NCBI GenBank assembly: GCA_963716175.1
Contig: OY970296.1
Coordinates: forward strand, 2,016,001-2,080,000
From: an uncultured Armatimonadetes bacterium
GTDB taxonomy: Bacteria > Armatimonadota > Hebobacteria > Hebobacterales > Hebobacteraceae
DNA: 64,000 nucleotides
Direction: 5' to 3'
The notes under the pieces were generated by a model. The model saw nothing but the letters and a program-made list of their open reading frames with translations. It ran no database searches and had not been told where the DNA came from. Within the stretch, counting starts at the first letter, position 1. Each line of letters begins with the position of its first letter. Shown one piece after another: positions 1,262 through 63,592 of this stretch. Position numbers and translations under genes: made by a program.

Positions 1262-1527
1262 CCGACGCCCCCGGCCACCCCCGACTCCGGCTACCCCTTT
1301 GGCTTGGAGTCGGGGGCCGGGGTTCCGTCGCGTATGCGTCCGGTATGGCAGGAGCAGTCGCGCCACGGCGGCGATCACCGGCAGCCCCACCCGGTCGAAT
1401 CCCCGCTCGGCACCTTTCTCCATCCCCGGTGGCCTTCCAGCACAGGGGTGTCCTCGAGTACAGAGAATACCGCCACTGGGACCATAGGAGCGTCTTGGGA
1501 GGCAGACGAGCTTTCGGACCGCGCGGG
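1262..1527 (+). repeat. Dispersed ~260-bp element, full-length copy
   Basis: Contains CCCCCGACTCC...GGAGTCGGGGG hairpin, CCGGGGTTCCGTCGCG, ACAGGGGTGTC..GAGAATAC and TGGGAGGCAGACGAGCTTTCGGACCGCGCGGG. Confidence 0.85.
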
Positions 1528-1821
1528 CGGAGGAGCGAGAAGCCTGTCTCCAAGCAGACGAAGATCGAGAAGAAGCCGTCCAACCAGTATGACTCTGCGT
1601 ACACTGGGGTGACCTGGGTCACCATCGAGGCCAAGAACAGGAGCTATACGGGTTGGTATGTCGACATCCGGGACACCATAGGCGAACCGGGGACGGCAGA
1701 CGACAACGTCACGAGCAGGAGGACCTCCGGCATCAAGTGCGTGAGCAAAGGGGCTTGCAATCGCTACCAGCACCAGTACCTGAAGCTCCAGCATTCGCTG
1801 GAGCAGTTCGCTGATGCCTGA
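1528..1821 (+). pseudogene. Headless C-terminal gene fragment starting at the element 3' end
   Basis: Protein-like frame (..KPVSKQTKIEKK...EQFADA*) with no start codon or RBS of its own. Confidence 0.5.
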
Positions 1822-1847
1822 CGTCGCGGTGCAGGAGGTGCAGCGGG

Positions 1848-2924
1848 ATGCGTGACTTCCACATCGGTCGTCTTGCTGCCGTGATCTGGCTGGCATATCT
1901 GTGCGCTGCTGGCGCTCGATGCTCGTCGGCAGACATGAGCTCTCTCCTGGGCATCGGCGGCACATATCAGCCGATGAGCGGTGAATCCCCAGTCCGCCTT
2001 CTTCGCGAGTTCATCCGGATCGAGTTCTCCCCTCGCCTGGCGCGCACGGTCGTCCAGTTCGAGTTCCGCAACGAAGGTCGGCCCCAGACGGTCGTCATGG
2101 GCTTCCCGGAGCAGGTCATGTATGAACGCGGGAGGTACCAGCGCTTCCGGGCCGAGGCTGACGGATGGCCACTGGCCGCCAGGCCAACGCCATGGGTGGC
2201 GGAATCATCCGAGCAGCGTTGGGCGCGATGGTGGGTGAGCAAGGTGCACTTCGCCCGCGGGGAGCGCCGCATCATACGAGTACGTTACCAGGAACCCCCT
2301 GGCATAGACGAGACGGACTGCTACGTGTACCGCTACCTGTTCGGGACCGGGCGCTCCTGGAAGGGAAGCATCGGCAGCGTGCAGGTGCTGATGATCCTGA
2401 AGGTTTTCCCCCTGGATGCCACGGTCACGGCCTACTTGCGGGGCGCGACACGTCATGGTGATCGGATTGCGTGGCAGTTCCAAGACTGGGAGCCAGACGA
2501 GGACGTCGCTCTTGACGTGGCGGTGTCGCCCTACATCACGGACATCGTTTTCGACGGCCACTACCCGAGCCTGTCGATGGAGAAGGAGCTAAACTTACGG
2601 CACGGCCATCTCGCTGGGCATCTCCGCAGCATCGCGGACTGGGCGGAGGGGAGTCTGGCGTGGTCTCGCGGTGAGCGGACCGGCTTCATTCATCGGAGGG
2701 CTAAGACCCTTGCTCTGACGGTCGACTCAACCCAGGCGTTGCTACTCCCTGAGAAGAGGGAGATCCGGCTTCCGTTCGCTGCCTATATTGAGCATGGTTT
2801 GCTCCGCGTGCCCGTTCGCGCGGTCTGGGAAGCGCTCGGCTTTTGCGTGGATATGAAGAAGGACGCGATCGGCAACTGGTCCGTGCGTGTTTGCGATCCA
2901 CAGAAGCACGGGGCGGCTTTGTGA
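1848..2924 (+). CDS. Secreted protein, DUF4424-like domain plus copper-amine-oxidase N-terminal (stalk)-like domain
   Basis: GGAGG RBS, signal peptide, YRYLFGTGRSWKGSIG and VPVRAVWEALG motifs. Confidence 0.7.
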   Translation: MRDFHIGRLAAVIWLAYLCAAGARCSSADMSSLLGIGGTYQPMSGESPVRLLREFIRIEFSPRLARTVVQFEFRNEGRPQTVVMGFPEQVMYERGRYQRFRAEADGWPLAARPTPWVAESSEQRWARWWVSKVHFARGERRIIRVRYQEPPGIDETDCYVYRYLFGTGRSWKGSIGSVQVLMILKVFPLDATVTAYLRGATRHGDRIAWQFQDWEPDEDVALDVAVSPYITDIVFDGHYPSLSMEKELNLRHGHLAGHLRSIADWAEGSLAWSRGERTGFIHRRAKTLALTVDSTQALLLPEKREIRLPFAAYIEHGLLRVPVRAVWEALGFCVDMKKDAIGNWSVRVCDPQKHGAAL

Positions 2925-2974
2925 GCCGGGGTATGCACTCCCGCCCAATCGTCGGCTGACCAGCCTCGCTCCCC

Positions 2975-3030
2975 GCCACCCCCGACTCCGGCTACCCCTC
3001 GGCTGGGAGTGAGTGACCGGGCCGAAACGC
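2975..3030 (+). repeat. Dispersed element, hairpin module only
   Basis: GCCACCCCCGACTCCGGCTACCCCTCGGCTGGGAGT. Confidence 0.8.
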
Positions 3031-9624: not shown

Positions 9625-9745
9625 GCAGGACCCCGTCGGTCCGGCTGAGTCGCTGCCAGCGCCGAGCCGACTAGCTGGAACCCGCGTGTTGTGCCGGATG
9701 AGGAAATGCCGGTGGTCTAGGGCCGCCTTCTGACGCAGTTGTCCT

Positions 9746-9831
9746 TGCCGACCGCCCGTGAAGCCGCCCCCGGTCACCCCCGACTCCGGCTACCCCCTCG
9801 GCTGGAGTCACTGCCCTTGGGCTCTCTCGCG
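9746..9831 (+). repeat. Dispersed element, 5' leader plus hairpin module
   Basis: CCGCCCGTGAAGCCG...CACCCCCGACTCCGGCTACCCCCTCGGCTGGAGTCACTG. Confidence 0.8.
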
Positions 9832-10231
9832 ACAGGGAACGACGCGACAGTGAGCTACCAGGGCCGTCGATCTGTCTGTCAGTCGGTGGCAGCGACGTGG
9901 AGACTGCCAGTCGTCTGGACTGCTCTGGCGGAGGGCTCACTGGTACAGCGCGTTCAGCCGGTCCGGCGGCATATCGCACAAGGTCGCGCCGACAGAGCCG
10001 ATACGCGACGGAGCCGCGCACGCTCATCGCCACGCGGCCCCGGAGACGAGGCTTGCACTGCTCAGCACGATTCTCTAGGATTCACCCTGACCGAGTTGCC
10101 ACGCAAGATACTGCGGACCCACCTGAGGCGCAAGAGGCAAGTCCGGGTCCTTGAGTATCCCCGATCACACATTGTGAGGGCAGACTGACACGGACACGCC
10201 GGACTTGGCGGCCCAGACCTGATGGCAGGAG

Positions 10232-10288
10232 GCCGACGGCCCCGGGCAACCCCGACTCCGGCTCCCCCCTCGGCTTGGAGTTGTGCGG
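10232..10288 (+). repeat. Dispersed element, hairpin module
   Basis: GCCGACGGCCCCGGGCAACCCCGACTCCGGCTCCCCCCTCGGCTTGGAGT. Confidence 0.75.
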
Positions 10289-11016: not shown

Positions 11017-11226
11017 GCCGTGGCAGCCGGCCTGAGGGCACCCCCGACTCCGGTTATCCCCTTGGTTTGGGGTCAGTGTAGGTGGTTTCGTCGCGGAGGC
11101 GGTGGCGTAGCAGTAGCGGGCGCGGTCTGGTACCGAAGCTGCCGCGGGGTAGGTGCCCGGTCATACCGGACCGATGGCGGTAGCCGTCCTTGCGCCGGAG
11201 CCAGATGAGTTTCTGGACACCACGCG
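11017..11226 (+). repeat. Dispersed element, near full length with diverged middle
   Basis: GCCTGAGGGCACCCCCGACTCCGG... and 3' GGAGCCAGATGAGTTTCTGGACAC. Confidence 0.8.
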
Positions 11227-11485
11227 CTTCTCGGTACGCGGCATTGCGCTGTTGGTGAATCGGTATCTGCGGGCGGCCGGCATCACCGATCGCTCCGGCC
11301 CCCACCTGCTGCGCCACACCTTCGCCACCCACGCCCTGCGCGCCCGGCCCAATCTCCGGGCGGTGCAGGAACTGCTGGGCCACGCCTGGGTGACCACCAC
11401 CCAGCGCTACACCCATCTGGAGGTCGAGGATCTACAGGCTCAGGTCGCTGATCTGCCGGCGAACCAGATCCACAGCGCCTCCTAG
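11224..11485 (+). pseudogene. C-terminal fragment of a XerC/XerD-type tyrosine recombinase
   Basis: [11 protein letters not shown]...VQELLGHA...TTQRYTH catalytic box; the N-terminal two thirds are missing. Confidence 0.9.
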
Positions 11486-40089: not shown

Positions 40090-40424
40090 GGGGCAGAGCG
40101 CCTCCGGGCGGGGGTGCCCTGGAGGTATCAGATGTCCTGCAGGAAGCCGAAGAAGGAGGAGATGCAGGCGTACTTGCGGCGCAAGGTCAAGGGCGCTGGC
40201 TTTCTCAGGCTGACGCCGAACTGGACGATCATCTCTCGGGTGATCTGAGGTGGCGCAGGCACGCGCCCCAGTCGCTTCTCGAGGAATTCCCGGAACATCC
40301 GCATGTCCGTGCTGTAGGCGCGCACTGTCAAGGGGGAGAAGCTGCGATAGTCCTTGAGGTAGCTGAGGAACTCCTTCACCGCCTCATGGTACGACAACTC
40401 ATTCGTTGCTGCTGCTTCCGTCAT
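40090..40424 (-). pseudogene. N-terminal (SAM-like) fragment of a XerC/XerD-type tyrosine recombinase
   Basis: EFLSYL...SPLTVRAYSTD...TLRRKYACISSFFGFL; premature TGA at 40128-40130, then YLQG.P before similarity ends. Confidence 0.85.
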
Positions 40425-40431: not shown

Positions 40432-40685
40432 CCCGTTCTGTCCGGAAACTCATCTGGCTCCCAGATCCCGTCTCATGGCATTCTCTACCCTCACGGACAC
40501 CCCCCTGTCCGGGAGGCCTAGAGGATGCAGAAGGGTAGCGATGGAGGGTTCAACTGGGCGGGCCTGCCCCTTGTCGCCACTGTGGCGCGCCTGCCGTCCC
40601 CACCCGCCGCAGAACCCCGAGCAGTGACTCCTGTGCCGAGGGGGTAGCCGGAGTCGGGGGCTGCCTGAAGCAGCTACAGGCGGTT
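40432..40685 (-). repeat. Dispersed element, full-length copy directly upstream of the recombinase ATG
   Basis: All three modules present on the minus strand; ends 7 nt before the ATG at 40424. Confidence 0.88.
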
Positions 40686-41865: not shown

Positions 41866-42762
41866 ATGACTGTGCAGAGCCTGACCGACGAGGTGCGGAA
41901 TGTCGCCACCGCCGCTGGCGCTGACCTTGTTGGCTTTGCCCCCATCTCTCGCTTCGCGGGTGCGCCACGCGAGTTGCACCCACACACCATCTTCCCCCAG
42001 ACGGAAACGGTGATCGCGGTGGCCGTGCGGCAGACGCGGGGCACGCTCAAGGCGGTGGAGGAGGGCACCTACTGGCAGGCGTACAATTGCGACTCGTACT
42101 GGTACCTCAATGAGGTCATCGCGCCCCGAGTGCTGCGAGAGGTAGTGCTGCTCCTGGAGGAATCTGGTTTCACCAGCGTCCCGTTCCACAACCCCTTCAT
42201 GCCGCACGTCGGCAGACGGGTGCGGGCTGACCAGCCGGCGGGGCCTGATGGCATGATGTCTCTGCGGGTGGTCGGGGTTGCGGCTGGGTTGGGCGAGTTG
42301 GGCCACTCGAAGCTCCTGCTGACCCCCCAGTACGGCCCGCGGCAGCGCGTGTTTGCGGTCCTGACGGATGCCCAGCTTTGCCCGACCCCACTTTCCAGGG
42401 AACAGATCTGCGACGGCTGCCTGGCCTGCGTCAACGAGTGCGAGGCCCACGCCATCGGCACTTGCCGGGAGGTCCGGTTCGCAATCGAGGGACGTGAGTT
42501 CTCTCACGCGCCGCTGGACGCCGAGGCATGTGGACGCGTGCACGTGGGTCGTGACCCGCGCTTCTCGCCCTTCTGGGCGGGCCCAGAATCCGAGGGTGAA
42601 CAGCCGAGCTACAATAAGTTCCTGCTGCACCGATTCCGACATCTCGCCATCTGCGTAGGTCGCGGGTGCGTGCGCGCCTGCCTGGATCATCTCGAGAGAA
42701 CGGGGCGCATCTCAGCCAGCTTCAAGACCCCGCTGATTGAGCGAGACAGGTGGAAGCTCTGA
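41866..42762 (+). CDS. 4Fe-4S protein of the QueG/reductive-dehalogenase-like family
   Basis: GADLVG, AAGLGELG, TPQYGPRQR and CDGCLACVNEC motifs. Confidence 0.85.
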   Translation: MTVQSLTDEVRNVATAAGADLVGFAPISRFAGAPRELHPHTIFPQTETVIAVAVRQTRGTLKAVEEGTYWQAYNCDSYWYLNEVIAPRVLREVVLLLEESGFTSVPFHNPFMPHVGRRVRADQPAGPDGMMSLRVVGVAAGLGELGHSKLLLTPQYGPRQRVFAVLTDAQLCPTPLSREQICDGCLACVNECEAHAIGTCREVRFAIEGREFSHAPLDAEACGRVHVGRDPRFSPFWAGPESEGEQPSYNKFLLHRFRHLAICVGRGCVRACLDHLERTGRISASFKTPLIERDRWKL

Positions 42763-42772
42763 CGGACGCATC

Positions 42773-42842
42773 CGCGACGCAACCCCGGACATCCACTCCC
42801 AGCCGAGGCTAGCCGGGGTCGTGGGGTGCCCGGGGCCGTCGC
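42773..42842 (-). repeat. Dispersed element, hairpin module
   Basis: Reverse complement GCACCCCACGACCCCGGCTAGCCTCGGCTGGGAGTGGATGTCCGGGGTTGCGTCGCG. Confidence 0.8.
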
Positions 42843-43142
42843 CCACGACACTCCCTCGGTGGCGGCGGTACTCCTGCTGTAGGTTAGCTCGGACGCTGAC
42901 ACTCATGTGGGCGGTGTCCGCATCAAGGCATGGCATTGGGCCAGGAACGCGAGTTCCGTCGCGAGGCGCGCAACCGTGACTATCGCACCACGTGGCCGAA
43001 GCGCACCCTCTCCGGGAGACTGGCGCATACAGCGCGTTCCCGGAACCTGGCGGCCAGGTCTGTCCCTCTCCCGTTCTACCCAAGATGCGGACCGTGATCG
43101 CCGCCCAGTCACTCCCTTTCGGCATGACGAACAGGCACTTGG

Positions 43143-43245
43143 CGTCACTGGCCTGGGTTCCGTCGCCACTCATCGCAGACGGCTCTTCCCAGACACGCGG
43201 GTCACCGCGTTCCGACTGGCGGCGTGATGTCAGGTTGGCTCGACG
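43143..43245 (+). repeat. Dispersed element, variant-tail partial copy matching 51623-51725
   Basis: GTCACTGGCCTGGGTTCCGTCGC...GACACGCGGGTCAC...GGCGGCGTGATGTCAGG. Confidence 0.75.
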
Positions 43246-43269
43246 GGCACCGGACGCGGACAGGCGCGC

Positions 43270-44747: not shown

Positions 44748-45015
44748 CAACCCCCCGTGAAGCCAGCCTGGGGACCCCTCGACCCCGGGTGCCCCGTGGG
44801 CTTGGAGTTCACTGTCCGGGGTTCCGTCGCGTGTGGCGACAGCGGCCGCGACACCGTGGCGATGACCGGCAACCCCGTCCAGTCAGGACCTCGCCCGGGA
44901 TCATCCTCCGTCCTTCGTGCCTCCCGGAACAGGGGTATCAGTGGATGGAGAGAATACTACGACTGAGGCTGCAGGTGGCGTCCTGGGAGCCGGATGAGTT
45001 ACTGGACAGCGCGGG
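44748..45015 (+). repeat. Dispersed element, full-length copy
   Basis: CTGTCCGGGGTTCCGTCGCG...ACAGGGGTATC..GAGAATAC...CTGGGAGCCGGATGAGTTACTGGACAGCGCGGG. Confidence 0.85.
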
Positions 45016-45130
45016 CAGCAGCACTCTCCTCGCGTGGCCGTGGCCGGCATGTCCTCATCGCCAAGGAGCGAACCTGCCCTGTTACTCGCCGCGGTGGTGA
45101 CGGCCATGGTCGTGCGCAATGCTACAGATG

Positions 45131-45200: not shown

Positions 45201-45368
45201 GTGTACGGCTGATCCTTGCCCGCACGCAGGCTCGGGAACCGCTCAGCGGTGTCTCATCGTCTCCTAACACCGACACGCGGGGTCATGTCTGTTACTCAGC
45301 GGCAACCGCCGCGTGCTGCTGATGCCAATTCTCCCCCACCATCCAGTGCCGAGCCGCGCACCCCCGAT

Positions 45369-46694
45369 CTACGTCACCGCCCATACGCTCGATGGCTGCT
45401 TGGGGAAGAGGATCCGCAGCAGCACTCTGGCGTCGCTGCCACAGGCGTAGCAGTCCGGATTGACGTGGCGGAGGTCCTCCAGCGAGTGCATGCCGAAGAG
45501 CATGTGCAGGAAGGTGCCGCTTCGGAAACAGCCTGACTCGCCCTCTTGCGCTGGCGACCACGGCTCGGCGACCGTGAGCCTGCCCTTCGTGAAAGCCAGC
45601 CGCAGGCCATCCCGGAAGAAGCTGAGCTTCAGTTCCCCCGTCCACCGGGGTGCGATGGACCTCGCCAGTCGCGCCTGCAGCACCGGTGCGATGAGGCGCA
45701 GGAACCCGGGCAGGTCCGGCACACGGAGGTAGAACGCGTAGGGCTCACCGCCGGGCTGCAGGAAGTCGGGCGCCGCCTCGTAGGCAGGATGCCGCGTTCC
45801 CAACTCGAAGCGCAGCCACTCCAACTCTTTGCCATCCCGCGCTGCGTACTCGGACCCTGCGGCATTCAGGTACCGCAGTACGCTCGGCGTGGCCCCCAGC
45901 CAGTCCGCGCCGGCCCTGAGTTCGTAGAGCACGGCTGTAATCGCGTTGCCCCGGAGAGCGCCACCATGAGCGAGCAGGCCCAGGCGCTCCCCTCTCGGTG
46001 TCGCGACGACGCGGAACTGCTCGCCAGTGGTGCGGCCGAACGCGAAGTAGCGCCATAGCCTCGGCGAGGGCACGCTTGAGACGAGAGAACGCTTCCGGCC
46101 CTGCGCATAGACCCGCGCCATGAAGGGCAGGTCGGCCTCCGCCGCGGGACGCACCAGGTAGGGCTCTTCCTCTCCCTCCTTGAGCTTGGGCACATCGCAC
46201 GTGTGGCCGCGGCGGCCGGCATCGAGTTCCAGTGCCATTTCGTAGCCGAACTGGCGATAGAAGTTTGGGATGCCGGCGATCGCCTGCAGCACCTGCCCGC
46301 GCTGTGCGCTCCACTTATGTATGATATCGAACTGCGCGCGGATGAGGCCACGCCGCCGGTAGCTGGGGTCTGTCGCCACAAGCTCCGGCCGGCCGATGGC
46401 GAACTCTATCCCTCCATATGACCACCGCTGAGACAGCAGACAGAGCGAGGAGACGATCTCCCCAGTACGCGGGTCTTCGACGACCGTGAAGTCGCGAGGC
46501 CTGAAGGTAGGGTACCGGCCCGCCATCAGATCGCCGGTCCAATGCACCACGAACTGATCCGGGTCCTCGGGGCTTCCGAGAGTCCGGCCGGTGAAGCGCA
46601 CCAGGGCCTCCGTGTCTTCGGGCGTCGCCCGGCGCAGCACGAGACCATCTACCAACTCCCGGATGATTGCCCCGCCTCTCCTCGGTTTCTGCAT
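45369..46694 (-). CDS. Tandem GNAT (Eis-like) acetyltransferase
   Basis: VATDPSYRRRGL and GIPNFYRQFGYE motifs. Confidence 0.9.
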   Translation of the reverse strand: MQKPRRGGAIIRELVDGLVLRRATPEDTEALVRFTGRTLGSPEDPDQFVVHWTGDLMAGRYPTFRPRDFTVVEDPRTGEIVSSLCLLSQRWSYGGIEFAIGRPELVATDPSYRRRGLIRAQFDIIHKWSAQRGQVLQAIAGIPNFYRQFGYEMALELDAGRRGHTCDVPKLKEGEEEPYLVRPAAEADLPFMARVYAQGRKRSLVSSVPSPRLWRYFAFGRTTGEQFRVVATPRGERLGLLAHGGALRGNAITAVLYELRAGADWLGATPSVLRYLNAAGSEYAARDGKELEWLRFELGTRHPAYEAAPDFLQPGGEPYAFYLRVPDLPGFLRLIAPVLQARLARSIAPRWTGELKLSFFRDGLRLAFTKGRLTVAEPWSPAQEGESGCFRSGTFLHMLFGMHSLEDLRHVNPDCYACGSDARVLLRILFPKQPSSVWAVT

Positions 46695-46830
46695 CCCTGT
46701 CTCCTCAAGAAATGACACACGCCTGCCTGGCGCCACCCGGTAAGTCGGATGACGCAAAGCAGGCGCGCAATGGGCTGAGGTGCGTATTCCTGCTAGAGCA
46801 GTATGGTTCTCTCCGTGGTCAGCCGTGGAT

Positions 46831-46859
46831 AATCTAGCCCAAGGTCACCTTCGTGTCAA
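46831..46859 (-). promoter_or_regulatory. Sigma70-like promoter for the GNAT gene
   Basis: Minus strand TTGACA-17 nt-TAGATT. Confidence 0.6.
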
Positions 46860-46912
46860 GCTTCGCAAGCCCCTCACTCACGATCTTCCGGCGTTTCGCG
46901 ACCACCTTTCCT

Positions 46913-47180
46913 TGTCAACCGCCCGTGGAGCCGCCCCCGCGCACCCCCTGACTCCGGCTACCCCCTCAGCTGGAGTCACTGTCCGGGGTTCCGTCGCGGG
47001 TGGGGAAGGGAGCCGCGCCACGGCGGCGACCATGGAAGGTCCGCCCCGTCGAGTCCGCTTTTGACCTCCTCACCCATCCTAGGTGCCTCCGAAACCCTAG
47101 TCTCAGCGATCACGGAAATCAGCACGACTGGGCCTCCAGGAGGGTCCTGAGCGCCAGACGGGTTCTTGGACACTAACGGG
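46913..47180 (+). repeat. Dispersed element, full-length copy
   Basis: TGTCAACCGCCCGTGGAGCC...GACTCC...GGAGTCACTGTCCGGGGTTCCGTCGCG...GCCAGACGGGTTCTTGGACAC. Confidence 0.88.
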
Positions 47181-47254
47181 GGATTCAGAGGGGAAGTGAG
47201 TAGTCGCGGAGACGCGGCAGAGGCGTGCCTACGTGCAGGAGACCAGCTTCTGCC

Positions 47255-48106
47255 CTACCGATACTGCTTGATCATCTCGAGGAACTTCGGGTACTCCCCG
47301 TCGAGCATGTGGTAGCATTGCTCGTCGGCAGGGAACTTGCCGGTGCGGACATCGTCGCAGTAGTCCTTCATGGCCTTGGTGACCATTTCGGCGACGTTGC
47401 AGTAGCGCTTGACGAACTTGGGCGTGAATGCCTGGAACTGGCCGATGAGGTCGCTCACAATCAGCAACTGGCCGTCGCAGTACATTCCCGCGCCGATGGA
47501 GAGCACGGGGATAGTGAGCCGCTCGGCAATGAACTTGCCGACCTCCGGCGGGATCGCCTCCAGCAAGAGCAACTGCACACTTGCATCCTGCAGCGCCATG
47601 GCGTCTTCGATCAGAGCCTGCGCGGATGCGACGGTGCGGCCCTGCGCCTTGTGCCCGCCGAGCTGGCCCGAGCTTTGCGGCGTGAGGCCAATGTGTCCAC
47701 AGGCGACGATGCCGGCGTCGAGAATCCCGCGCACCATGGGAATGACGCGCCGGCCGCCCTCCAGCTTGACTGCATCAACCCCAGCCTCCTTGAGAAAGCG
47801 GCCCGCGTTCTCGATCGCCTTTTCCACCGACGACTGGTAGCTCATGAAGGGCATGTCGCCGATCACGAAAGTGTTGGGCGCGCCCCGCCTCACCGCTTCA
47901 CAGTGCACGATGCACTGAGCCATGGTCACCGGAATGGTGTTCGGGTATCCGTAGACGCACATGCCCAGTGAATCGCCGACCAGGATCATGTCCATCCCCG
48001 CCGCCTCGGCGAACTGTGCGGTGGGGTAGTCGTAGGCGGTGATCCAGGTGATCTTCTCACCCCGGCGCTTCATGGCGTAGAAGTCGTGGGTCATCTTCTT
48101 TGGCAT
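47255..48106 (-). CDS. panB: 3-methyl-2-oxobutanoate hydroxymethyltransferase
   Basis: TAYDY, LVGDSLG, DMPFMSY, VKLEGG and GHIGLTPQ motifs. Confidence 0.97.
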   Translation of the reverse strand: MPKKMTHDFYAMKRRGEKITWITAYDYPTAQFAEAAGMDMILVGDSLGMCVYGYPNTIPVTMAQCIVHCEAVRRGAPNTFVIGDMPFMSYQSSVEKAIENAGRFLKEAGVDAVKLEGGRRVIPMVRGILDAGIVACGHIGLTPQSSGQLGGHKAQGRTVASAQALIEDAMALQDASVQLLLLEAIPPEVGKFIAERLTIPVLSIGAGMYCDGQLLIVSDLIGQFQAFTPKFVKRYCNVAEMVTKAMKDYCDDVRTGKFPADEQCYHMLDGEYPKFLEMIKQYR

Positions 48107-48320
48107 GAGGTGCACCTCCGCGTCGAGACAGCCGAGCTTGAGGTGGCTTCTTTTTGTGTCACGAGGCAGATTACCTTCCCGGAGCGCACCCAAGAATGCT
48201 ATCGGGCGTTCTGGAGCGCTGCGACGCATTCTGTTGGGGCATTGTGCGCGTGTGGCGCGCCCGGGAGGCTGGCCTGAGAGCCTGGGGGGTTGTCTGTCCC
48301 CCTCTGCTGCCAGCCACGCC

Positions 48321-48378
48321 GGCCACCCCCGACCCCGGCTACCCCCTCGGCTGCGGGTCCTGCTCGGGTCTGCGTCGC
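48321..48378 (+). repeat. Dispersed element, hairpin module
   Basis: GGCCACCCCCGACCCCGGCTACCCCCTCGGCTGCGGGTC. Confidence 0.75.
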
Positions 48379-48529
48379 CGATGCAGGCAAGCGTACTCCC
48401 CCGGAGAGAACCGTATCCGAGGGCTTCATCGAATGGTCCCGTATGGTAGAATGCCCAGGACTCACTGGCAGGTAACAGGGCTGTCCGAGGTGTCCGATTG
48501 CCATTTGACACCCGCAGACTGTTCGACCA

Positions 48530-48683
48530 GCGCCCCGGGCACTCGTTCCCGGAAGGCCCGGTCCCAATCCAGATCGGGGTGCCGGTGCCACATCGGATAG
48601 TTGTACTTGACCTCAGACCAAACAGTCGCAAGCCCAACCAGCCTCTCCTCGCGCGTCAACCCTCCCATCGCTCTGCCTCCCAT
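48530..48683 (-). pseudogene. N-terminal scrap of an S41-family peptidase
   Basis: LTREERLVGLATVWSEVKYNY...PDLDWD, then truncated. Confidence 0.6.
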
Positions 48684-48735
48684 GTCGTCGCCTTCGCCGC
48701 TCAGCCCGCCCACTCCCGCCGACTCCGGGTTTGCA

Positions 48736-49006
48736 TGTCAACTGCCCGTGAATCCGGCCTGAGGGCACCCTGACCCCGGCTACCCTCTAGGCTGGTGTCA
48801 CTGTCCGGGGTTGCGCCGCGTATGAGACGTGACCAACTAGGGCACGGCAGGGGCCGAGTGCTGGAGGTCCCGCCCAGTCCAACCCCGCTCACCATCCCCG
48901 CCCATCCTCGCCGCCTCCCAGCACAAGTGTGTCAGCGATCGCCGGGAATAGCACCATTGGGGCGGCAGGAGCGCCCTGGGAACCAGATGGGTTTCCGGAC
49001 AGCACG
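48736..49006 (+). repeat. Dispersed element, full-length copy
   Basis: TGTCAACTGCCCGTG...GTCACTGTCCGGGGTT...CTGGGAACCAGATGGGTTTCCGGACAGC. Confidence 0.88.
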
Positions 49007-49133
49007 CCCACGGCCAGCTGGCACAGCGCTTTCTCCGGCATCACACTTATCCCCACGCGGCGATGGTCTGCAGGAACGGCTACTGGGCCGCTGGTATCGT
49101 CGGCAGTAGCTGCTGCGCCCCCTTGGACAAGTG

Positions 49134-49877
49134 ATGAGCACGCAATCGGCCCTCCGCGTGGTGAGTGTTTACCGTCAGTTCGACGCGACGCGCCTCGAGC
49201 TGGAGGTCGCCGGCCGCCGCGGCTTCATCATCGTGCCCGAGGCGCGGTCGCGGCCCACGCCGTGGGTGTGGTACGCGCCGCACTTCGACGGGGTAATGCC
49301 GCGGGAGATCCACACCTGGATCTGCACCCGGCTGCTCGCGGCAGGAGTGGCGATCGCCGGCGTGGATGTCGGCGAGTCTTATGGCAGCCCCGCGGGCCGG
49401 CGGACCTTCACCGCCTTCCTCGACGCCCTCGTGCCTGCCTATGAGCTGGCGGCGCGGCCGACTCTGCTGGGGCAGAGCCGCGGCGGACTCATGCACTACA
49501 ACTGGGCGGTGGAGCACCCCGACCGGGTGTTGCGCATTGCTGGCATCTACCCCGTGTGCAACCTCGCTGCCTGGCCCGGCGCCCCGAAGGCGGCGGAGGC
49601 CTACGAGATAATGCCGGAGCAGCTCCAGGCGGCACTGGTGGAGCACAACCCGATCGATCGCCTGGCGCCTCTCGCCGCAGCCCGCGTGCCGATCTTCCAC
49701 GTGCATGGCGATGCCGATGACGTGATCACGCTGGAGGAGCACTCGGCCGAACTGGCGCGACGCTACCAGGCGTTGGGTGGACCGATGGAGTTGCTCATCA
49801 TCCCCGGCGCCGGCCACGAAGAGATCAGTGCCTTCTTCGAATGCCCGCGGCTTGTCGACTTCTTGATCGGAGGCTGA
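49134..49877 (+). CDS. Alpha/beta hydrolase
   Basis: GQSRGG nucleophile, HGDAD and GAGH motifs. Confidence 0.9.
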   Translation: MSTQSALRVVSVYRQFDATRLELEVAGRRGFIIVPEARSRPTPWVWYAPHFDGVMPREIHTWICTRLLAAGVAIAGVDVGESYGSPAGRRTFTAFLDALVPAYELAARPTLLGQSRGGLMHYNWAVEHPDRVLRIAGIYPVCNLAAWPGAPKAAEAYEIMPEQLQAALVEHNPIDRLAPLAAARVPIFHVHGDADDVITLEEHSAELARRYQALGGPMELLIIPGAGHEEISAFFECPRLVDFLIGG

Positions 49878-49920
49878 AAGAGACGAAAGCGGATCCCCGC
49901 GGATGAACGCGCATGGAACA

Positions 49921-50060
49921 TCAGAAGTCGTACACGATGCGCTTGACCTGGACCCGTGAGGTGCCGAAGTTGAGGAGCAGGCAGAGCTTGAGGCCGGAGG
50001 CCCGCAGGTAGTTGAGGCAGTGTGCGCGGTGAGCATCCTTGCGTGTGTTGACGGCCCGTA
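49921..50060 (-). pseudogene. C-terminal scrap of a GxxExxY protein
   Basis: AHRAHCLNYLRASGLKLCLLLNFG...VKRIV. Confidence 0.75.
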
Positions 50061-50150
50061 GCACCGTCCTGAGCGTGTTGTGGGCTTGCCCCGGGTCGGC
50101 TACCCCGCGCACGATGTTGTACCCAGATGAGACCGCGGTTCGGCACTCCC

Positions 50151-50384
50151 GACATCCCCGACTCCGGCTACCCCCTCGGGTTGGGGTTGTGCGGGGTTCC
50201 GTCTGTGGATGACCGCGCCGGCCTTCCCACGGTCGTGACTGTCAGCCGGCCCGCCCAGCCGGATCTGCCCTCGCGATTCCTGCTTGTCCTCCGCCAGAAC
50301 AGGGGCGTCAGTGATCGCAGAGAAGACCACCAGCGTGGCTCCAGCACCGCTCTGGGAGCCAGATGAGCTGTTGCGCAGGACGGG
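50151..50384 (+). repeat. Dispersed element, full-length degenerate copy
   Basis: CCCCGACTCCGGCTACCCCCTCGG...ACAGGGGCGTC..GAGAAGAC...CTGGGAGCCAGATGAG. Confidence 0.82.
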
Positions 50385-50477
50385 GGGTGCACCGCCGAGA
50401 AGGACGTGAAGGTGTCCGGGCAACGGTCGCGCCGAGCTCCCCCGGAATGCGCAGCCCAGGGAAGAGGTACCCTCGAA

Positions 50478-51437
50478 ATGTCGCCGGACGCTGGTCAGAA
50501 CCCCGTTCAGCTTCGATGTCTGACGATCCTCCCTGCTCTCTTAGGTCTTGCCTGGCCAACCCTGGGACTCGGGGTTGTGGCGCGAGGCGGCGCGGCCGCC
50601 CCTGCGGCAGCCGCGGGATGCGACCCGTTCGGGGTCCGGAAGCTCTTCCCCACGCAGCCGGGAGGGCGGGAGTGGTTCGCCCGGTGGAGTAACGGCCATC
50701 CTCGGGAGTTCGCCAACGCGATCGACCCCGACGATCCCTGGTTCGATACGGACCACGGCGACGGCCGGTACGTCGTGGATGGCCGCGGGAAACTCACTGC
50801 CACCGGGGACCACGTAAGGATGTACGTGCACGATCCTCGCAAGCAGGCCGAGTGGGGTGAGAACCTGGAGATCACGGTCTACATCCGGCGGATCGGCGAG
50901 ACCAAGCTGCTCTCCTACTCCGGGCTTCAGATCTTCGCGCGAACAAACCACGGAACGACCGGCCCCGAGCTGCAGGATCTATGCGACGACCGGGGGTACG
51001 GCGCCAAGGTGCTGGTGGATGGGTGTTGGGAGTTCGAGAAGGAGACGGCGCACCACCTGGACAAAGGCTACACGAGCGTGGCCACGGCCCGCCCGTGGCT
51101 GGCCCTGCCGAAGAACACGCTGGTGGGCGTGAAGTACGTCATCCGCAACGTCCACGGCGGCACCCATGTGAAAGTGGAGCTTTACCGCGACCTAGCGGGC
51201 GGCCTCGGTGGAGGCACTTGGCAGAAGATCACCGAGTTCATCGACACCGGCGCCAACTGGGGTGTGGGCGCCGGAGCCTGCAGGCCTGGTGTCAAGCCGG
51301 AGCTGCCCCTGATGCGGCCCCTAGTCCTGTGCGATTCCGAGAGCGGGAAGCCAATCATGACGGTGTACTTCCGCCATGAATTTGGCACCATCGAGTATCA
51401 GTGGGCCAGCATCCGGGAGATCGCGCCGCTGCCGTGA
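50478..51437 (+). CDS. Secreted beta-rich hypothetical protein (lyase/lectin-like)
   Basis: Signal-like N-terminus, DPFGVRKLFPT and WASIREI motifs. Start is uncertain. Confidence 0.75.
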   Translation: MSPDAGQNPVQLRCLTILPALLGLAWPTLGLGVVARGGAAAPAAAAGCDPFGVRKLFPTQPGGREWFARWSNGHPREFANAIDPDDPWFDTDHGDGRYVVDGRGKLTATGDHVRMYVHDPRKQAEWGENLEITVYIRRIGETKLLSYSGLQIFARTNHGTTGPELQDLCDDRGYGAKVLVDGCWEFEKETAHHLDKGYTSVATARPWLALPKNTLVGVKYVIRNVHGGTHVKVELYRDLAGGLGGGTWQKITEFIDTGANWGVGAGACRPGVKPELPLMRPLVLCDSESGKPIMTVYFRHEFGTIEYQWASIREIAPLP

Positions 51438-51559
51438 GGCGGCCCGGAGAACGGCTGCGGCCACAAGCCTGGCCGGGACGTGGCGTTCCGGGGGCGCGTG
51501 AGCGAAGTCCATCCGAGTAGTAGCGGCGGGTGCGCTGCGGACTCGTGTCCCTCTGTCCG

Positions 51560-51725
51560 TGTCAACCGCCCGTGGAGCCGGCCTGAGGGCACCCCCGACT
51601 CCGGCTATCCCCTCGGCGTGGAGTCACGGCCCGGGGCTCAGTCGCGGGTCGTCGTGCGACGGCGCTTCCCTGACACGCGGGTCACAGCCTTCTGGTTGGC
51701 GGCGTGATGTCAGGCCGGCTCCAGG
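51560..51725 (+). repeat. Dispersed element, 5' leader plus hairpin plus variant tail
   Basis: TGTCAACCGCCCGTGGAGCCGGCCTGAGGGCACCCCCGACTCC...; tail shared with 43143-43245. Confidence 0.85.
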
Positions 51726-51834
51726 GGCCCCTAACAGGGGCAGCCTAGAGCATGTTCCGACCGAAAGCGGCTGCCGACACCGGAAGCGGTCGCGCTCTGG
51801 CCGCGGGACTGGGGCACAGGAGGAGGAAGCGAAC

Positions 51835-51880
51835 ATGGACATCTACGATGCGATCAGAACGCGGCGCATTGTGAAGCCAC
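51835..51880 (+). pseudogene. Nitroreductase N-terminal scrap
   Basis: Strong RBS and MDIYDAIRTRRIVK, which runs into an element 3' module. Confidence 0.65.
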
Positions 51881-51883
51881 ACG

Positions 51884-51922
51884 AGAGTCCTGGGAACCAG
51901 ATGGGTTTCTGGACAGCGCGGG
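51884..51922 (+). repeat. Dispersed element, isolated 3' module
   Basis: CCTGGGAACCAGATGGGTTTCTGGACAGCGCGGG. Confidence 0.85.
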
Positions 51923-51944
51923 CTCTTGGCGTGTAGGAGACGAC

Positions 51945-52935
51945 ATGTCAGAACTACTGGTTAGGCTCTTTCGCTACTCAAACGAGCAGGAGAACTTCTT
52001 CACCGAATGTGTGGCCGACGCGCTGCGGCACAATGAGGCATTTCGCAGAAGGTTCGTCGGGTTCCTGTTCGGCGCCGGCGGGGAGGATCAGGGTGCGCCT
52101 CGAGAGGTGAATGCGATCGAGACGCAGGTGGGCTATCCCGGTTCCTGCGTCGACATGGTGCTACGCTTCGCCGACGGGACGGCACTCGGCGTGGAGCACA
52201 AGCTGTGGTCGCCGGAGGGGGCCCGGCCAACTCGCGAGGTACCTGGGTCTGTCGCTGGACTGGATCGCTTTCGTCACCGGTTACGCCGATGCCGACGCTC
52301 GCACAGAGATCGTAGACCACCCGAAGTACCTCTCACCGCGTTCCGTCCACCCTCATTTCATGTGGCACGACGTCCAGCCGCTGCTGGAGGAAAGCAATCG
52401 TGCCTCGCCGGTCTTCCAGACCGTCGCGCTTCTCAGTCTATTCAGGCACCTCGGCTTCGAGCCGCCGCCTGATAGCATTCCCGACCTATGGGAAATGGAC
52501 CCAGTGGTCAAGCACGCGAACCGCGTGCAGTTCGCCATGCTCTGGCAGCCGACTGAGGCCGGACTCCGAGCAAGGGGGTGGCGGAGATTCGGTCGGGCCA
52601 GTCATGCGGGTCTGGAGTACCGCACTGACTCATCGCCCACGGTGAAGCGCATCTGGCTGGACCCGACGGAGATTCGGGGCTCGCTGCGGCTCCGCCTGAC
52701 GGTCTGCCCGGAGACTGATCCGGCAGGGCTCGTGGGTCGGCTGCAGAGCTCTCCGCTGCCGCGCCGGGACCAGATCGTGCTGACCGTGGCCCGTGCGCGC
52801 CGGACCCGTGGACGCGAGGCAGTGGTCGACGTTCTGATCTCGCTTCGCGCGCTACTCGGTGACGCCATCGGATCTGAAGCGATTGCGCAGCGCCTGGCTG
52901 ACCATACGCTGAGTGTTGTTGACGCAGTGTGTTAG
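51945..52935 (+). pseudogene. PD-(D/E)XK nuclease-like protein, frameshifted near 52220
   Basis: ENFFTE, VDMVL..GVEHK..S.EG, continuing as QLARY in another frame across a G run. Confidence 0.7.
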
Positions 52936-58298: not shown

Positions 58299-58463
58299 GT
58301 ACCCGAGCACCGGGATGCCCCCGCAATACTTGCCCTTGTGCTTGGTGGCCGCGATCTTGTCCCGAATCCGCTCGCCGATGATCTCCCGCTCGAACTGGGC
58401 GAAGGAGAGGAGTATACTCAGGACCAGCCGGCCCATCGAGGTCGTGGTGTTGAACTGCTGGGT
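58299..58463 (-). pseudogene. Serine recombinase internal scrap, paralogous to ~26718-26885
   Basis: QQFNTTTSMGRLVLSILLSFAQFEREIIGERIRDK..GKYCGG.PVLGY. Confidence 0.9.
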
Positions 58464-58487
58464 CCCCACGCGTGTGGGGGTGATCCA
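58459..58487 (+). CRISPR. Single orphan type I-E-like CRISPR repeat (no array)
   Basis: TGGGTCCCCACGCGTGTGGGGGTGATCCA matches the I-E pattern of CCCC..GGGG stem plus GTGATCC tail; no second copy is present. Confidence 0.5.
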
Positions 58488-60343: not shown

Positions 60344-60598
60344 GCCGATGACCCGGGCACCCCCCGACTCCGGCTCCGCCTCGGCTGGGAGTCACTCTCC
60401 GGGGTTCGGTCGCATATGGGAATGGCGGTCCCGTCGCGACAGCGATCGCGGGGAGGCCTGCCCTGTCGAAGCCTCAGACGCTGCCTTGCCGCATCGTCGG
60501 GGCCCTTCCAGACGAGGGGTGCCGGCGAGCGCCCAGAATACTACGAAACGAGCGGCGCAGGGGCTCTGAGGGCCGGATGAGTTTTCCGACCCCACGGG
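60344..60598 (+). repeat. Dispersed element, full-length copy
   Basis: GACTCC...GGAGTCACTCTCCGGGGTTC...AGGGGTGCC..CAGAATAC...GGCCGGATGAGTTTTCCGAC. Confidence 0.85.
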
Positions 60599-60834: not shown

Positions 60835-60989
60835 GCGAGCCCAGCAGACGGGTTCCCCCAAGCGGGATGGCGCGGACCGCTGGCAGTACGCAGGCACATT
60901 GGTTCCTGAGGGTCAGCAGGGCGGGGTTGATTACACCCTGGGCGCCGGGCAGCAAGTTCGAGCAGATCCTACTCCTGGAGGTTGAAGGC

Positions 60990-63125
60990 ATGAAGAAGAT
61001 GGTGTGCGAGCCCACGATCAAGTCGCAGACCGACACGAGCGGTTGGTTCCCGTTCGATCTGCCACCGGATGTGCTCGCCAGAGGAGAAGGCGGATTCGAG
61101 GGAGCAGTGGACTTCTCGGGCTCAATCGAGAAGCCAGCGGGGAAGCATGGCTTCCTGAGAGTCAGCGGCGAGCACTTCGCCTTCGCGGATGGTACGCCGA
61201 TCAAGTTCTGGGGCGTGAACCTGGACAGCGGCGGAGGGTTGCCCGAAAAGGCGCACGCGCCGTTCGCCGCCAGGCGCATGGCGCAGCTTGGGATCAACGT
61301 CGCGCGCTTCGCCGTGGACCATGAGGCGCCACGGGGCATCATCGCCCCAGGCAACGACACGCAGCACATTGACGCCGAGATGCTCGACCGGCTGGACTAC
61401 TTCGTCTCCTGCCTGAAGGAGAACGGCATCTACACCCGGCTCGACCTGATGCACTACCGCATCTACAGGCCCGGTGACGGCGTGGACGCTCCTCAACGCG
61501 AGCGTGGTGAGCCGCCCTATGGCGGCGGACCAGCGATGTACTTCGACCCGAAAGCGGAGGCGCTGCACAAGCAGTTCGCCACGCAGCTCCTGCTGCACGA
61601 GAGCCCCTACACAGGGCTGCGGTATGTTGACGACCCGGCGATGGTATTCGTCGGCATCGTCAATGAGAACACGATCTTTTTCTACCCGAGGCGGATGACT
61701 GACAGCGGCCGGAAGACACTGGACGGCAGGTACGAGGAGTGGCTGAAGACGCATCCCGGCGGCGCCAAGATGCGCTTTCTCGCAGGGCTGGAGCGGGGCT
61801 ACTACGAGCGGATGCACGCGTTCCTGCGCGAGATCGGGGTGAAGACGCCAATCGCGGGCCACAACATGGTGATGAACGCCGCGGACGCCCAGCTCCTGGG
61901 GCAAGTCGGCGATCACGTGGAGTTCAACATCTACTGGGATCACCCGCACCGGGAGTATCTTTGGGTCTGGAACAAGCCCATGGTGAAAGAACCTGGCGGC
62001 ATCTTCCCCGCCTCGGCGGCAGCTTCGGTGGCGGGCAAGCCCTTCGCCATTACCGAGCTCAACTTCTGCGACAGGTCTTACAGGATGGAGGGGCCCCTGC
62101 TGACTCTTGCCTACGCCTCGCTGCAGGATTGGGACGCGGTGCTGTGGTGGGACTACAACGCAAGCTGGGAGAAAGCGGGCGGGTTCGAGGACTTCATCGG
62201 CACCACCCCCATGTTCACACTCCGGGATAATCCCATGATGCTGGCGCAGTTCGGCGTCGCCTCCTTGGCCTTCCGCAACGGATATATCTCCCCCGCGAAG
62301 ACGCGGGTCAATGTGAAGATGACGGACGCGGATGTCTTCGCAGAGCCGAACTGGATCTGGCAGGAGAGGTGGAGCGAGCTCAGGTCGGGTTCGCCGTTCG
62401 CGGCGCTGCCCTTGATGCTGCAGATCAGAAGCCAGTACGACGATAACCTGGATGGACGGAAGCCAGACGTGGTGGTGGGGGGTCCCGCTGCGGCCGGGCA
62501 GAGCAGTCGCGCTGACGGAGCCAAGGTCACCATCGAACGGCCCGCCGAGGCTTCTGAAAAGGACCCGGACATCGCGTGGCGTTCGGTTCGGCAGAAGTTG
62601 GGCGCGCTGAAGCTTGCCCAGCTCCCGGAGCCAGGCGCGACGACCTTCGACAGTGACACAGGCGAGCTTCACTGGGATACCGGAAAGGGCGTGCTGGCTA
62701 TCAGCTCGCCGAGGCTCCAAGCTGTGGTCGGCTTCGTTTCCGGCCGGCGCTTCACACTCGGCGACTTCACCATCGCCCTGGCGGAGAAGGGCGCGGCCGA
62801 GTTCGTAGCGATCAGCCTCTGCTCGCTCGACGGCCGTTCGCTCAGAGAGTCATCGCGCGTTCTCCTGACGCTGGCGGGTCGCGCCGAGGACACGGGGCAG
62901 ATCTGGCAAGAGGGTCCAGAGGGTGACCTGACGGCAGAAGCGGGAGTGCGGCCGGTGCTGGCGGAGCCGATTCGTGGGCAGTTGACTTGGGCGGGCCGGA
63001 AGCTGCAGGTGTTCGCTCTCACTGCTTCTGGAAAGAGGGCCAACGAGGTTCCGCTGGAGCAACAGGGGGCGCTGACGTTCGGCGGCGACCAGACCATGTG
63101 GTATGAGCTCGTCCCGGCCGGGTGA
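60990..63125 (+). CDS. GH5-like glycoside hydrolase
   Basis: PAGKHGF, FWGVN, IVNEN, YWDHP, ITELN and LQDWD motifs. Confidence 0.88.
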   Translation: MKKMVCEPTIKSQTDTSGWFPFDLPPDVLARGEGGFEGAVDFSGSIEKPAGKHGFLRVSGEHFAFADGTPIKFWGVNLDSGGGLPEKAHAPFAARRMAQLGINVARFAVDHEAPRGIIAPGNDTQHIDAEMLDRLDYFVSCLKENGIYTRLDLMHYRIYRPGDGVDAPQRERGEPPYGGGPAMYFDPKAEALHKQFATQLLLHESPYTGLRYVDDPAMVFVGIVNENTIFFYPRRMTDSGRKTLDGRYEEWLKTHPGGAKMRFLAGLERGYYERMHAFLREIGVKTPIAGHNMVMNAADAQLLGQVGDHVEFNIYWDHPHREYLWVWNKPMVKEPGGIFPASAAASVAGKPFAITELNFCDRSYRMEGPLLTLAYASLQDWDAVLWWDYNASWEKAGGFEDFIGTTPMFTLRDNPMMLAQFGVASLAFRNGYISPAKTRVNVKMTDADVFAEPNWIWQERWSELRSGSPFAALPLMLQIRSQYDDNLDGRKPDVVVGGPAAAGQSSRADGAKVTIERPAEASEKDPDIAWRSVRQKLGALKLAQLPEPGATTFDSDTGELHWDTGKGVLAISSPRLQAVVGFVSGRRFTLGDFTIALAEKGAAEFVAISLCSLDGRSLRESSRVLLTLAGRAEDTGQIWQEGPEGDLTAEAGVRPVLAEPIRGQLTWAGRKLQVFALTASGKRANEVPLEQQGALTFGGDQTMWYELVPAG

Positions 63126-63343
63126 CGATGATCGGTTCTGGAGACGAACTCCGCGCCCGGTGCGCGTTACGGCTGGATGCGGCCACATGCGCGTCTCGAC
63201 ATCCGGTAGGACCGGCCTGAGCGCGTTCCGGCCTTGCTCGGGCTGACTCTCTACGCCATACGTTTGCGATCGCCGGCCGGGGCCTCCGGGAGCCGTCTGA
63301 CCCCCAAGAGCCACCACGCCGGGAGACCGTCGCGAACCGCCTA

Positions 63344-63592
63344 GGCCACCCCCCGACTCCAGCCTCCCCCTCGGCTGGGAGTCACGTCCGGGGTTCCGTC
63401 GCGGATGGGGCGGGCAAGCCGGCGCACGACAGGGGCCGAAGCGCTGGATGCCCTGCTAACTCCAGTGCCGGATCGACCTCCTCGCCCATCCTCGGTGCCT
63501 CCGAGACCAGGGGTGTCCACGAATGCACAGAATAGGATGAGACGGGCTGTGTGGCTGCTCCGGGAGGCAGATGAGTTCTCGGATAGCGCGGG
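63344..63592 (+). repeat. Dispersed element, full-length copy
   Basis: GACTCC...GGAGTCACGTCCGGGGTTCCGTCGCG...AGGGGTGTCC..CAGAATA...GGGAGGCAGATGAGTTCTCGGATAGCGCGGG. Confidence 0.88.

Follow-up and report, generated by a model that had tools for sequence, protein, structure and literature searches.

Does the repeat that punctuates unrelated genes along a 64,000-bp stretch of an uncultured Armatimonadetes chromosome act as one recombination site for the capture and shuffling of genes? The stretch (hereafter the window) spans bases 2,016,001–2,080,000 of a genome (G000) assembled as a single 4.56-Mb contig, with 66% G+C and an estimated completeness of 91%. A preliminary description, made from the window alone, had recognized a dispersed non-coding element of about 260 bp with conserved blocks (modules A, B and C) and had proposed a recombination platform, or the non-coding arm of a tyrosine-recombinase mobile element. 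It can be said with high confidence that the repeat is a mosaic of transposon-derived modules and not a single recombination site, and that it constitutes neither an integron nor a known RNA, nor a repetitive extragenic palindromic (REP) system driven by a REP-associated tyrosine transposase (RAYT).

An alignment of the nine near-full copies in the window extended over about 260 nt and confirmed the block order first noted. Copies of the repeat are diverged, at about 70–75% identity. A profile built from the nine found 124 matches in the genome at E ≤ 1e-3, and 126 after one iteration, with E-values down to 2e-59; within the window, all nine near-full and all ten partial copies reported earlier were recovered. 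Genome-wide, the matches comprised about 30 composites of A+B+C, about 65 copies of module A alone (∼75 nt) and about 23 of B+C alone (∼175 nt). What had been described as one element is a mosaic of modules A, B+C and two further modules, D and X, which also occur in other combinations. The copies had been called intergenic, which holds for most, but 17 of the 126 matches overlapped an open reading frame (ORF) by more than 40 nt according to crude calls based on G+C at third codon positions (GC3), which underlie all counts of ORF overlap and orientation given here, and a C-like piece at 11184–11224 lies inside an integrase-fragment ORF. As the preliminary description held, the repeats separate unrelated units of one to four genes, which in the window include those for an M1 peptidase, tetratricopeptide repeat (TPR) proteins, a GH129 protein with surface-layer homology (SLH) domains, an alkaline phosphatase, GNATs, APH, PanB, PIG-L, an S9 hydrolase and a beta-helix protein. 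The repeats were also strongly clustered and oriented. Seven arrays, covering 9.1% of the genome, held 111 of the 126 matches, and 106 of these 111 were on the majority strand of their array (11/11, 11/13, 6/6, 5/5, 56/59, 13/13 and 4/4). The largest array (1.906–2.108 Mb) contains the window, and its three exceptions are the minus-strand copies at 40–43 kb of the window.

Together, modules B and C make up the 175-nt left end, in reverse orientation, of an IS481-like insertion sequence (IS). Six copies consisting of B–C only, starting at model position 75, have a common upstream flank that is coding on the reverse strand, and the copy at 2861799 (nhmmer 127.6 bits over model positions 75–249) continues into an intact ORF of 373 aa. 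In the predicted protein, an rve_3 integrase-core domain scored 33.1 bits (cut-off 26.5). Among NCBIfam models, that of the IS481 family (NF033577) fitted best, at 86.4 bits, below the cut-off of 224, with IS3 next at 49.3 bits, and the protein is therefore called IS481-like and not a family member. The intact ORF and an inverted copy of the terminus about 1.4 kb from the 2861799 end define a complete IS with terminal repeats of about 25 nt, CCCGTC(G/A)TGTCCA..AACTCATC.G, at ∼2861.8–2863.2 kb (locus L018), the sole intact copy in the genome beside several decayed ones. No target duplication was seen around it by eye. Modules B and C contain the terminal inverted repeat CCCGTCGTGTCCAGAAACTCATCTG, a promoter-like −10 box TGGTATTCT, GGGAGG, an ATG and about 30 transposase codons. 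Once reverse-complemented, seven window copies could be aligned with the intact IS at its left end, over the terminal repeat, a TCGTGGTATTCTC box, the ribosome-binding site with the start codon (GGGAGGC-ACCGAGGATGG) and about 30 codons, up to the beginning of module A. The conserved blocks B and C are thus the expression signals of a transposase and the IS terminus, read on the opposite strand. The ends of the composites have only TGTCC...GGACA tips in common. A match to an IS end with target duplications had been named in advance as evidence against a gene-capture element; the identity of the B–C half as an IS end agrees with this in part.

Two other identities considered for these modules were rejected. 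Module C is not a recombinase core site (CCAGA-N6-TCTGG), since the inverted repeat is not kept among copies and corresponds to the IS terminal repeat. Nor do B and C encode an omega-RNA of the IS200/IS605-TnpB kind, because no TnpB domain was found in the genome and B–C is the end of a DDE-type IS.

The same blocks might be read as a gene-expression module, in which A would be an insulator or terminator and B–C a portable promoter and leader, kept by selection for driving accessory genes. The GAGAAT and GGGAG blocks are indeed conserved, a co-oriented ORF came next in 35 of the 44 elements with a C end, often within 75 nt, and one composite has been kept with its downstream gene between genera at ∼76% nucleotide identity. 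The conserved blocks are, however, fully explained by the terminal inverted repeat, −10 box, Shine–Dalgarno sequence and ATG of the transposase on the opposite strand. Furthermore, the orientation of A was nearly independent of its neighbours (upstream ORF co-oriented in 44/63 cases, downstream in 37/63), two minus-strand genes (GNAT and panB) lie between plus-strand copies in the window, and no Rfam match, consensus fold or covariation was obtained, which makes this explanation very improbable.

Module A, the other half of the composite, is a 75-nt hairpin unit with the core CCCCGACTCCGGCTACCCCCTCGGCTTGGAGTCACTGTCCGGGGTTCCGTCGCG, strongly conserved, loop included, over 88 distinct aligned copies. 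Its GACTCC/GGAGTC hairpin was 91.6% paired, with no covariation above shuffles (125 of 500 shuffles were as good); A is a REP-like hairpin conserved in sequence, not in structure. RNAalifold gave no consensus fold for the composite, and Rfam 15 returned no match at gathering scores over the whole window and none at E ≤ 1 over 44700–52000. Together with an RNA fold z of −1.4 for one composite and the lack of covariation in the A hairpin, these results led to the rejection of a cis-regulatory or structured RNA. The possibility that A is the 3′ part of a tRNA target was rejected because no A copy overlaps a tRNA. In the public genome collection, the 23-nt core of module A was otherwise found in two metagenome-assembled genome (MAG) records only, both from Armatimonadota, which supports the placement of the source genome; it was absent from the viral contigs searched.

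Many A-only copies run on into the 100-nt module D, the last 40 nt of which (module X) are the reverse complement of a 5′ extension, TGTCC.TGTCAACCGCCCGTGAAGCCGGCCTGAGGG, bracketed in the original consensus. Inverted X, A, D and X form a 190-nt unit with TG...CA tips and GTCAAC...GTTGAC ends, and a long terminal stem was predicted for it as single-stranded DNA (ssDNA; z = −2.9 for 51554–51742). This X–A–D–X arrangement may form a unit resembling a MITE (a miniature transposable element with inverted repeats). Only three complete X-bounded pairs were found in G000, and in the majority of A copies the left end is shorter (CGACGGCCCCGG...) and a partner repeat is lacking.

Module A is itself a preferred target of IS481-type elements. 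A 1.36-kb element with a true IS481-family transposase (261 bits against the cut-off of 224) is present in four copies that are ∼99% identical, at G000 1725478–1726844 (−), 1904451–1905814, 1934759–1936123 and 1973938–1975305, all outside the window. They interrupt the loops of four different A copies at an identical position and in one orientation, each with a 4–5 bp duplication (CTACC/CTCCC). Within the window, the modules and the recombinase fragments next to them are arranged as follows.

1264..1522 (+): A+B+C composite, module A followed by the 175-nt IS left end in reverse; nhmmer 200 bits, model positions 2–248; B–C aligns to the intact IS end
2972..3021 (+): partial module A (model positions 9–59), part of a 3.9-kb segment of which the array holds another copy at 98.9% identity
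9740..9841 (+): inverted X (9740–9766) followed by module A (9762–9841)
10235..10287 (+): module A ending after about position 50, followed by an IS-end-like sequence (TGTGCGGACCGG...) related to the end of the IS481-family element
11025..11224 (+): module A (11025–11119) and a C-like IS terminus (∼11184–11224), B being largely absent; adjoins a truncated integrase gene
11153..11482 (+): C-terminal fragment of an Xer-like tyrosine recombinase of the int809 family described below, 92% identity over residues 207–300
40128..40424 (−): 98-aa N-terminal fragment with a SAM-like domain, from another tyrosine recombinase family, starting 12 nt after the C end of the minus-strand composite
40436..40674 (−): A+B+C composite, nhmmer 180 bits
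41629..41728 (−): module A; flanking unit duplicated in two other arrays
42760..42840 (−): module A
43115..43262 (+): degenerate 3′ part of A, then module D (43170–43262) ending in X; placed at 43143 in the preliminary description
44762..45011 (+): A+B+C composite, nhmmer 199 bits
45134..45204 (+): module A only
46909..47173 (+): inverted X, then A+B+C composite (46930–47173)
48320..48385 (+): module A only
48733..49004 (+): inverted X, then A+B+C composite (48755–49004)
50151..50380 (+): A+B+C composite
51554..51742 (+): complete X(inverted)–A–D–X unit of 189 nt, bounded by inverted repeats of ∼30–40 nt that give the terminal stem mentioned above
51833..51918 (+): solitary module C fragment (IS terminus)
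60348..60593 (+): A+B+C composite
63337..63588 (+): A+B+C composite

At 42760–43262, the minus-strand A and the plus-strand degenerate A–D stand head to head, about 275 nt apart, and the orientation switches back here. This switch may be the edge of a local inversion over 40.4–42.9 kb.

Comparison of the genome with itself showed that about ten units occur at 91–99% identity in two or three places, in the same or in different arrays, and that their orientation to the repeats is always kept. These units ended where A begins, near its position 30 (two cases, in the most conserved core), near its position 50, at the junction of B and C, or outside the modules. The end near position 50 is explained by insertion of an IS end. 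The unit ends are thus associated with the repeats but not with one fixed nucleotide. These scattered breakpoints, together with the identity of the B–C half as a DDE-type (IS481-like) IS end, do not sustain the view of the 260-bp repeat as a single recombination site.

Among the other genomes of the family, 10 of 14 had BLAST matches to the composite, while none of 26 genomes outside the family did. Module A was abundant only in G000, G005 and G011, with one match each in G003 and G009 and none in ten genomes. The relative G011, which belongs to another genus (single contig, estimated completeness 65%), was examined over two 100-kb regions. All 14 matches in one region and all 11 in the other lay on one strand, and the same mosaics of X, A, D and B–C were present. 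One of these arrays adjoins genes whose orthologues flank the array at 720–801 kb of G000, so at least that locus is old. A best G000 match of at least 50% identity was obtained for 36 ORFs of the G011 array zones; for 11 of them it lay inside a G000 array and for another 6 no more than 4 kb from one, as against about 3 predicted by array size (hand count). The matches were spread over five G000 arrays, and genes adjacent in G011 often mapped to different ones, whereas non-array neighbours were collinear (seven G011 genes in order against 698–707 kb of G000). One G011 copy of A joins two genes that lie in different G000 arrays, each with an A on the matching side. A solitary C fragment between two genes was present in G000 and absent in G011, and a composite and its downstream gene were kept as one block (G011 1939855–1942347 against G000 1615362–1617889, 76% nucleotide identity). 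Some copies have thus been inherited together with the neighbouring gene, and copies are common to different genera. The earlier suggestion of gene movement was borne out to this extent: within the genome, units beside the repeats have been copied and relocated from array to array, and in comparison with another genus they have been reshuffled.

With moderate confidence, we regard the arrays as old plasticity zones in which recombination between direct repeats shuffles gene units. Recombination of this kind would move units within and between arrays while keeping their common orientation, and it might proceed by RecA-type exchange in the most conserved cores, by IS-mediated events, or by excision of circles and their re-insertion. 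The outward-facing IS end may, in addition, provide signals for expression of the gene that usually comes after it. The reading is favoured because it needs nothing beyond what was observed, keeps orientation automatically and fits the breakpoints in the most conserved cores; no dedicated integron-type machinery is required.

A different origin is suggested by the hairpin of A, for which no target duplication or terminal inverted repeat was seen in most copies. A, or A–D, could be a small mobile element moved as ssDNA by an enzyme of HUH/Y1 or other non-DDE type, in the manner of REPs, REP doublets forming hairpins (REPINs) and IS200/IS605 derivatives, giving one orientation per replichore. 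The top strand of the element is the leading strand in six of the seven arrays (with the origin region placed by the minimum of the skew, 1.14 Mb, and by dnaA, 1.34 Mb), but six of seven is weak statistics. Copies of A–D up to 91% identical in unrelated flanks also suit such mobility, although the majority are old and diverged. G000 has five weak Y1_Tnp (RAYT-like) ORFs, at 962134, 1199920, 3132162, 3625861 and 4050831, yet they are flanked by other short repeats of 28–36 nt dispersed genome-wide, with no A, D or X within 900 nt; these ORFs and short repeats are a classical REP system unrelated to module A. As no TnpB was found and tight clustering in 9.1% of the genome is unlike such elements, an ssDNA element with replication-strand bias is decidedly unlikely.

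Two integrase fragments lie in the window. The ORF at 11153–11482 is the C-terminal third of an Xer-like recombinase whose homology to intact paralogues begins exactly at the end of the IS terminus, which places the IS end inside a broken integrase gene. At the other locus, an ORF with a prepilin-type N-terminal methylation motif and DUF1559 (38921–40036 (+)) stands in place of the rest of the truncated integrase at 40128–40424 (−). The fragments are broken or abutted by the IS end, and neither speaks for a functional partnership. A role of the composite as an integrase promoter, by tandem accretion of integrative elements, was not supported, as full-length relatives of the N-terminal fragment have no B–C upstream and int809-type genes have no module nearby. 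The N-terminal fragment belongs to a wider group of tandem tyrosine recombinase modules. Three modules of 2.1 kb, ∼92% identical and each with two tandem tyrosine recombinase genes, were observed at 2841.5–2843.7, 2959.7–2961.9 and 3032.2–3034.2 kb of G000.

A link to recombinases does exist at another level, in that one family of Xer-like tyrosine recombinases co-occurs with the arrays. Placement is thus both clustered and linked to recombinases, and not random without enrichment near them, the pattern that had been named as contrary evidence. One member, int809, scored 232 bits for XerC and 220 bits for XerD, both below the cut-offs. Recombinases at least 84% identical to it occurred only in G000, G005, G008, G011 and G012, other genomes of the family having only homologues of 41–45% identity. 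G000 has two intact copies and two fragments (with members at 808917–809822 (+), 2242368–2243309 (−) and, disrupted, 2102435–2103694 (−)), G005 has one copy, G011 has six uninterrupted copies, one with a stop and one split, at eight places, and G008 and G012 have one copy each, with an in-frame TGA. The genomes rich in A are exactly those with uninterrupted copies; G008 and G012, with TGA-bearing copies, are without A. At the four loci examined (int809 and int2242 in G000, two in G011), the recombinase was divergent from the array and 7–30 kb upstream of it. Homology between int809-type copies extends from ∼100–300 nt upstream to exactly the stop codon, and the gene thereby looks like a small mobile module itself.

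This association raises the possibility of an integron-like platform, in which A or X–A–D–X would be the site of the multi-copy int809-type recombinase, and circular one-site units would be inserted and excised to give one-directional arrays, the IS pieces being later passengers. Uniform orientation within arrays in two genera, cassette-like units common to different arrays, the synteny break at an A copy, the distribution and position of the recombinase, and the GTCAAC...GTTGAC ends and long ssDNA stem of the X-bounded unit are all in keeping with it, as is a G011 epimerase gene lying between X(−)A and A–D–X(+). Several results point the other way. The preliminary description had noted a resemblance to integron cassette arrays and pdif modules while stating that the element lacks the attC and dif consensus. 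On the latter point, no match to an attC- or dif-type consensus or to Rfam was obtained. No integron integrase above the cut-off accompanies the resemblance: the best genome match to IntI (TIGR02249, cut-off 265 bits) was partial at 90.1 bits, int809 reached 63.6 bits, and a classical integron was rejected on this ground. Around four recombinase copies, the 1.5 kb upstream and the 0.6 kb downstream held no A, D or X, and no attI-like conserved site was seen beside the recombinase. Breakpoints fall at several positions in A and B–C, genes between sites lie on either strand in units of one to four, A is conserved in sequence without covariation, unlike attC, and G000 has only three X-bounded units. 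Moreover, the A-rich genomes may form a single clade, in which case the co-occurrence with the recombinase would not be independent evidence and might reflect one evolutionary event. An integron-like mechanism is accordingly doubtful.

Repeat-mediated recombination, the favoured reading, also has points weighing against it. The uniform orientation of primary A copies is not explained by DDE transposition, and only secondarily by direct repeats keeping an existing orientation. About 30 composites with the same A/B junction require that the chimera spread as a unit by some route. No target-site duplication was seen by eye around A–D copies or X-bounded units. A–D units up to 91% identical occur in unrelated flanks, which implies that they are moved as discrete pieces. 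Repeats of 75 nt at 80–90% identity should undergo homologous exchange inefficiently, and the co-occurrence of the recombinase with A-rich genomes, always divergent from the array, is left as coincidence or shared island ancestry. In addition, the comparison between genera is based on one relative, G011, examined in detail, and the orientation counts depend on the crude ORF calls. Owing to the gaps concerning the origin of orientation, the spread of the A/B–C chimera and A–D pieces, and the recombinase link, an integron-like Xer-type system is retained as a possible, if unlikely, explanation. Should it hold, A, with or without X and D, would be the crossover site of a multi-copy Xer-like tyrosine recombinase, and the seven arrays would represent an integron-analogous cassette platform across genera of one Armatimonadota family, independent of IntI and attC, whose sites were later colonised by IS481-type elements; this proposition too is viewed as unlikely.

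The arrays resemble those of sedentary chromosomal integrons and clusters of attC sites lacking integron integrases (CALINs) in having long series of same-orientation sites between unrelated accessory genes, units duplicated across arrays, a divergent tyrosine recombinase and an orientation consistent with replication. They differ in having no IntI, sites conserved in sequence and not structure, one to four genes on either strand, a recombinase 7–30 kb from the first site, no attI-like site seen, scattered breakpoints, and an IS end as half of the “site”. attC sites are imperfect palindromes of ∼57–141 nt with R″ and R′ boxes (RYYYAAC...GTTRRRY), conserved in structure rather than sequence. 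For comparison, the X–A–D–X units have GTCAAC...GTTGAC ends and a predicted terminal stem, with three such pairs only in G000, and A showed no covariation. The units do not consist of a single promoterless co-oriented ORF, as integron cassettes mostly do: they hold one to four genes, the downstream ORF was co-oriented in 37 of 63 cases, and in the window GNAT and panB run antisense to the repeats. In the intergenic mosaic elements of Neisseria (dRS3/RS arrays) and in Xer-dependent pdif modules, variable segments are bracketed by short repeats that tyrosine recombinases recognize, and these repeats mark hot spots of rearrangement. Their sites are 20–28 bp long with a defined core; the bracketing of variable segments by short repeats is common to the arrays described here, but no such core was identified in them.

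Like REPs, bacterial interspersed mosaic elements (BIMEs) and the IS elements that target REPs (IS1397, ISKpn1, IS621 and ISPpu9/10), the present system has extragenic hairpins in mosaics and an IS whose orientation and point of insertion in the hairpin are both fixed. In contrast to them, A is 75 nt long, its ∼95 copies are confined to arrays with one orientation per array, and it has no RAYT link. REP–REP recombination and REP-targeting IS elements have been documented in other bacteria, and IS481 is not among the five REP-targeting families listed there (PMC1525189). BIMEs are described as dispersed and as having REPs in alternating orientation (PMC2817692). MITEs and solo IS ends derived from IS3- or IS481-type elements offer a further parallel, given that an autonomous IS of this genome has an end homologous to B–C, and X–A–D–X has terminal inverted repeats of 30–40 nt and TG...CA tips. 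Here, however, no target duplication was seen, most copies are without one repeat, orientation is uniform instead of random, and the copies are old (70–75% identity) and partly orthologous between genera. No prior description of the repeat was found in titles and abstract openings of the literature on Armatimonadota integrons or on mosaic elements and recombinase cassettes.

These results correct an attractive but oversimplified reading, as an IS end makes up half of the supposed recombination site, and the neighbouring integrase fragments are genes struck by this IS and not partners of the site. It is unusual for bacterial intergenic repeats that mosaic copies in one-directional arrays organize about 9% of a genome and that at least two genera have kept such arrays, while the genes between the repeats are exchanged among arrays. 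If recombination at the repeats is enzyme-driven, the system would be a second, independent invention of integron-like gene shuffling, in a poorly studied phylum; if it is repeat-mediated homologous exchange only, it would be a clear natural example of transposon debris structuring the plasticity of an accessory genome. The insertions in the loop of A add IS481-type elements to the IS families that target hairpin repeats.

The source genome was found in metagenome runs only, none of the listed runs being recorded as RNA. In short metagenome contigs, several joints linked equivalent places of different copies (e.g., 47029 joined to 48869 in runs X1 and X3), with sides of 20–40 nt and replaced letters between them; contigs from other copies of the repeat would look alike, and nothing was drawn from these joints. 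Five non-identical tRNA-Phe genes with a conserved upstream flank were found in G000 (747667, 789636, 981231, 2099497 (−) and 2285183 (−)), four of them inside arrays and antiparallel to the repeats, and a tRNA-Phe gene likewise lies inside an array in G011 (L008 4182–4257 (−)). Finally, a 165-nt direct repeat with 79% identity was observed in the window at 26721–26885 and 58300–58464, the second copy being at the start of the gene for the beta-helix protein, and is probably paralogous coding sequence.

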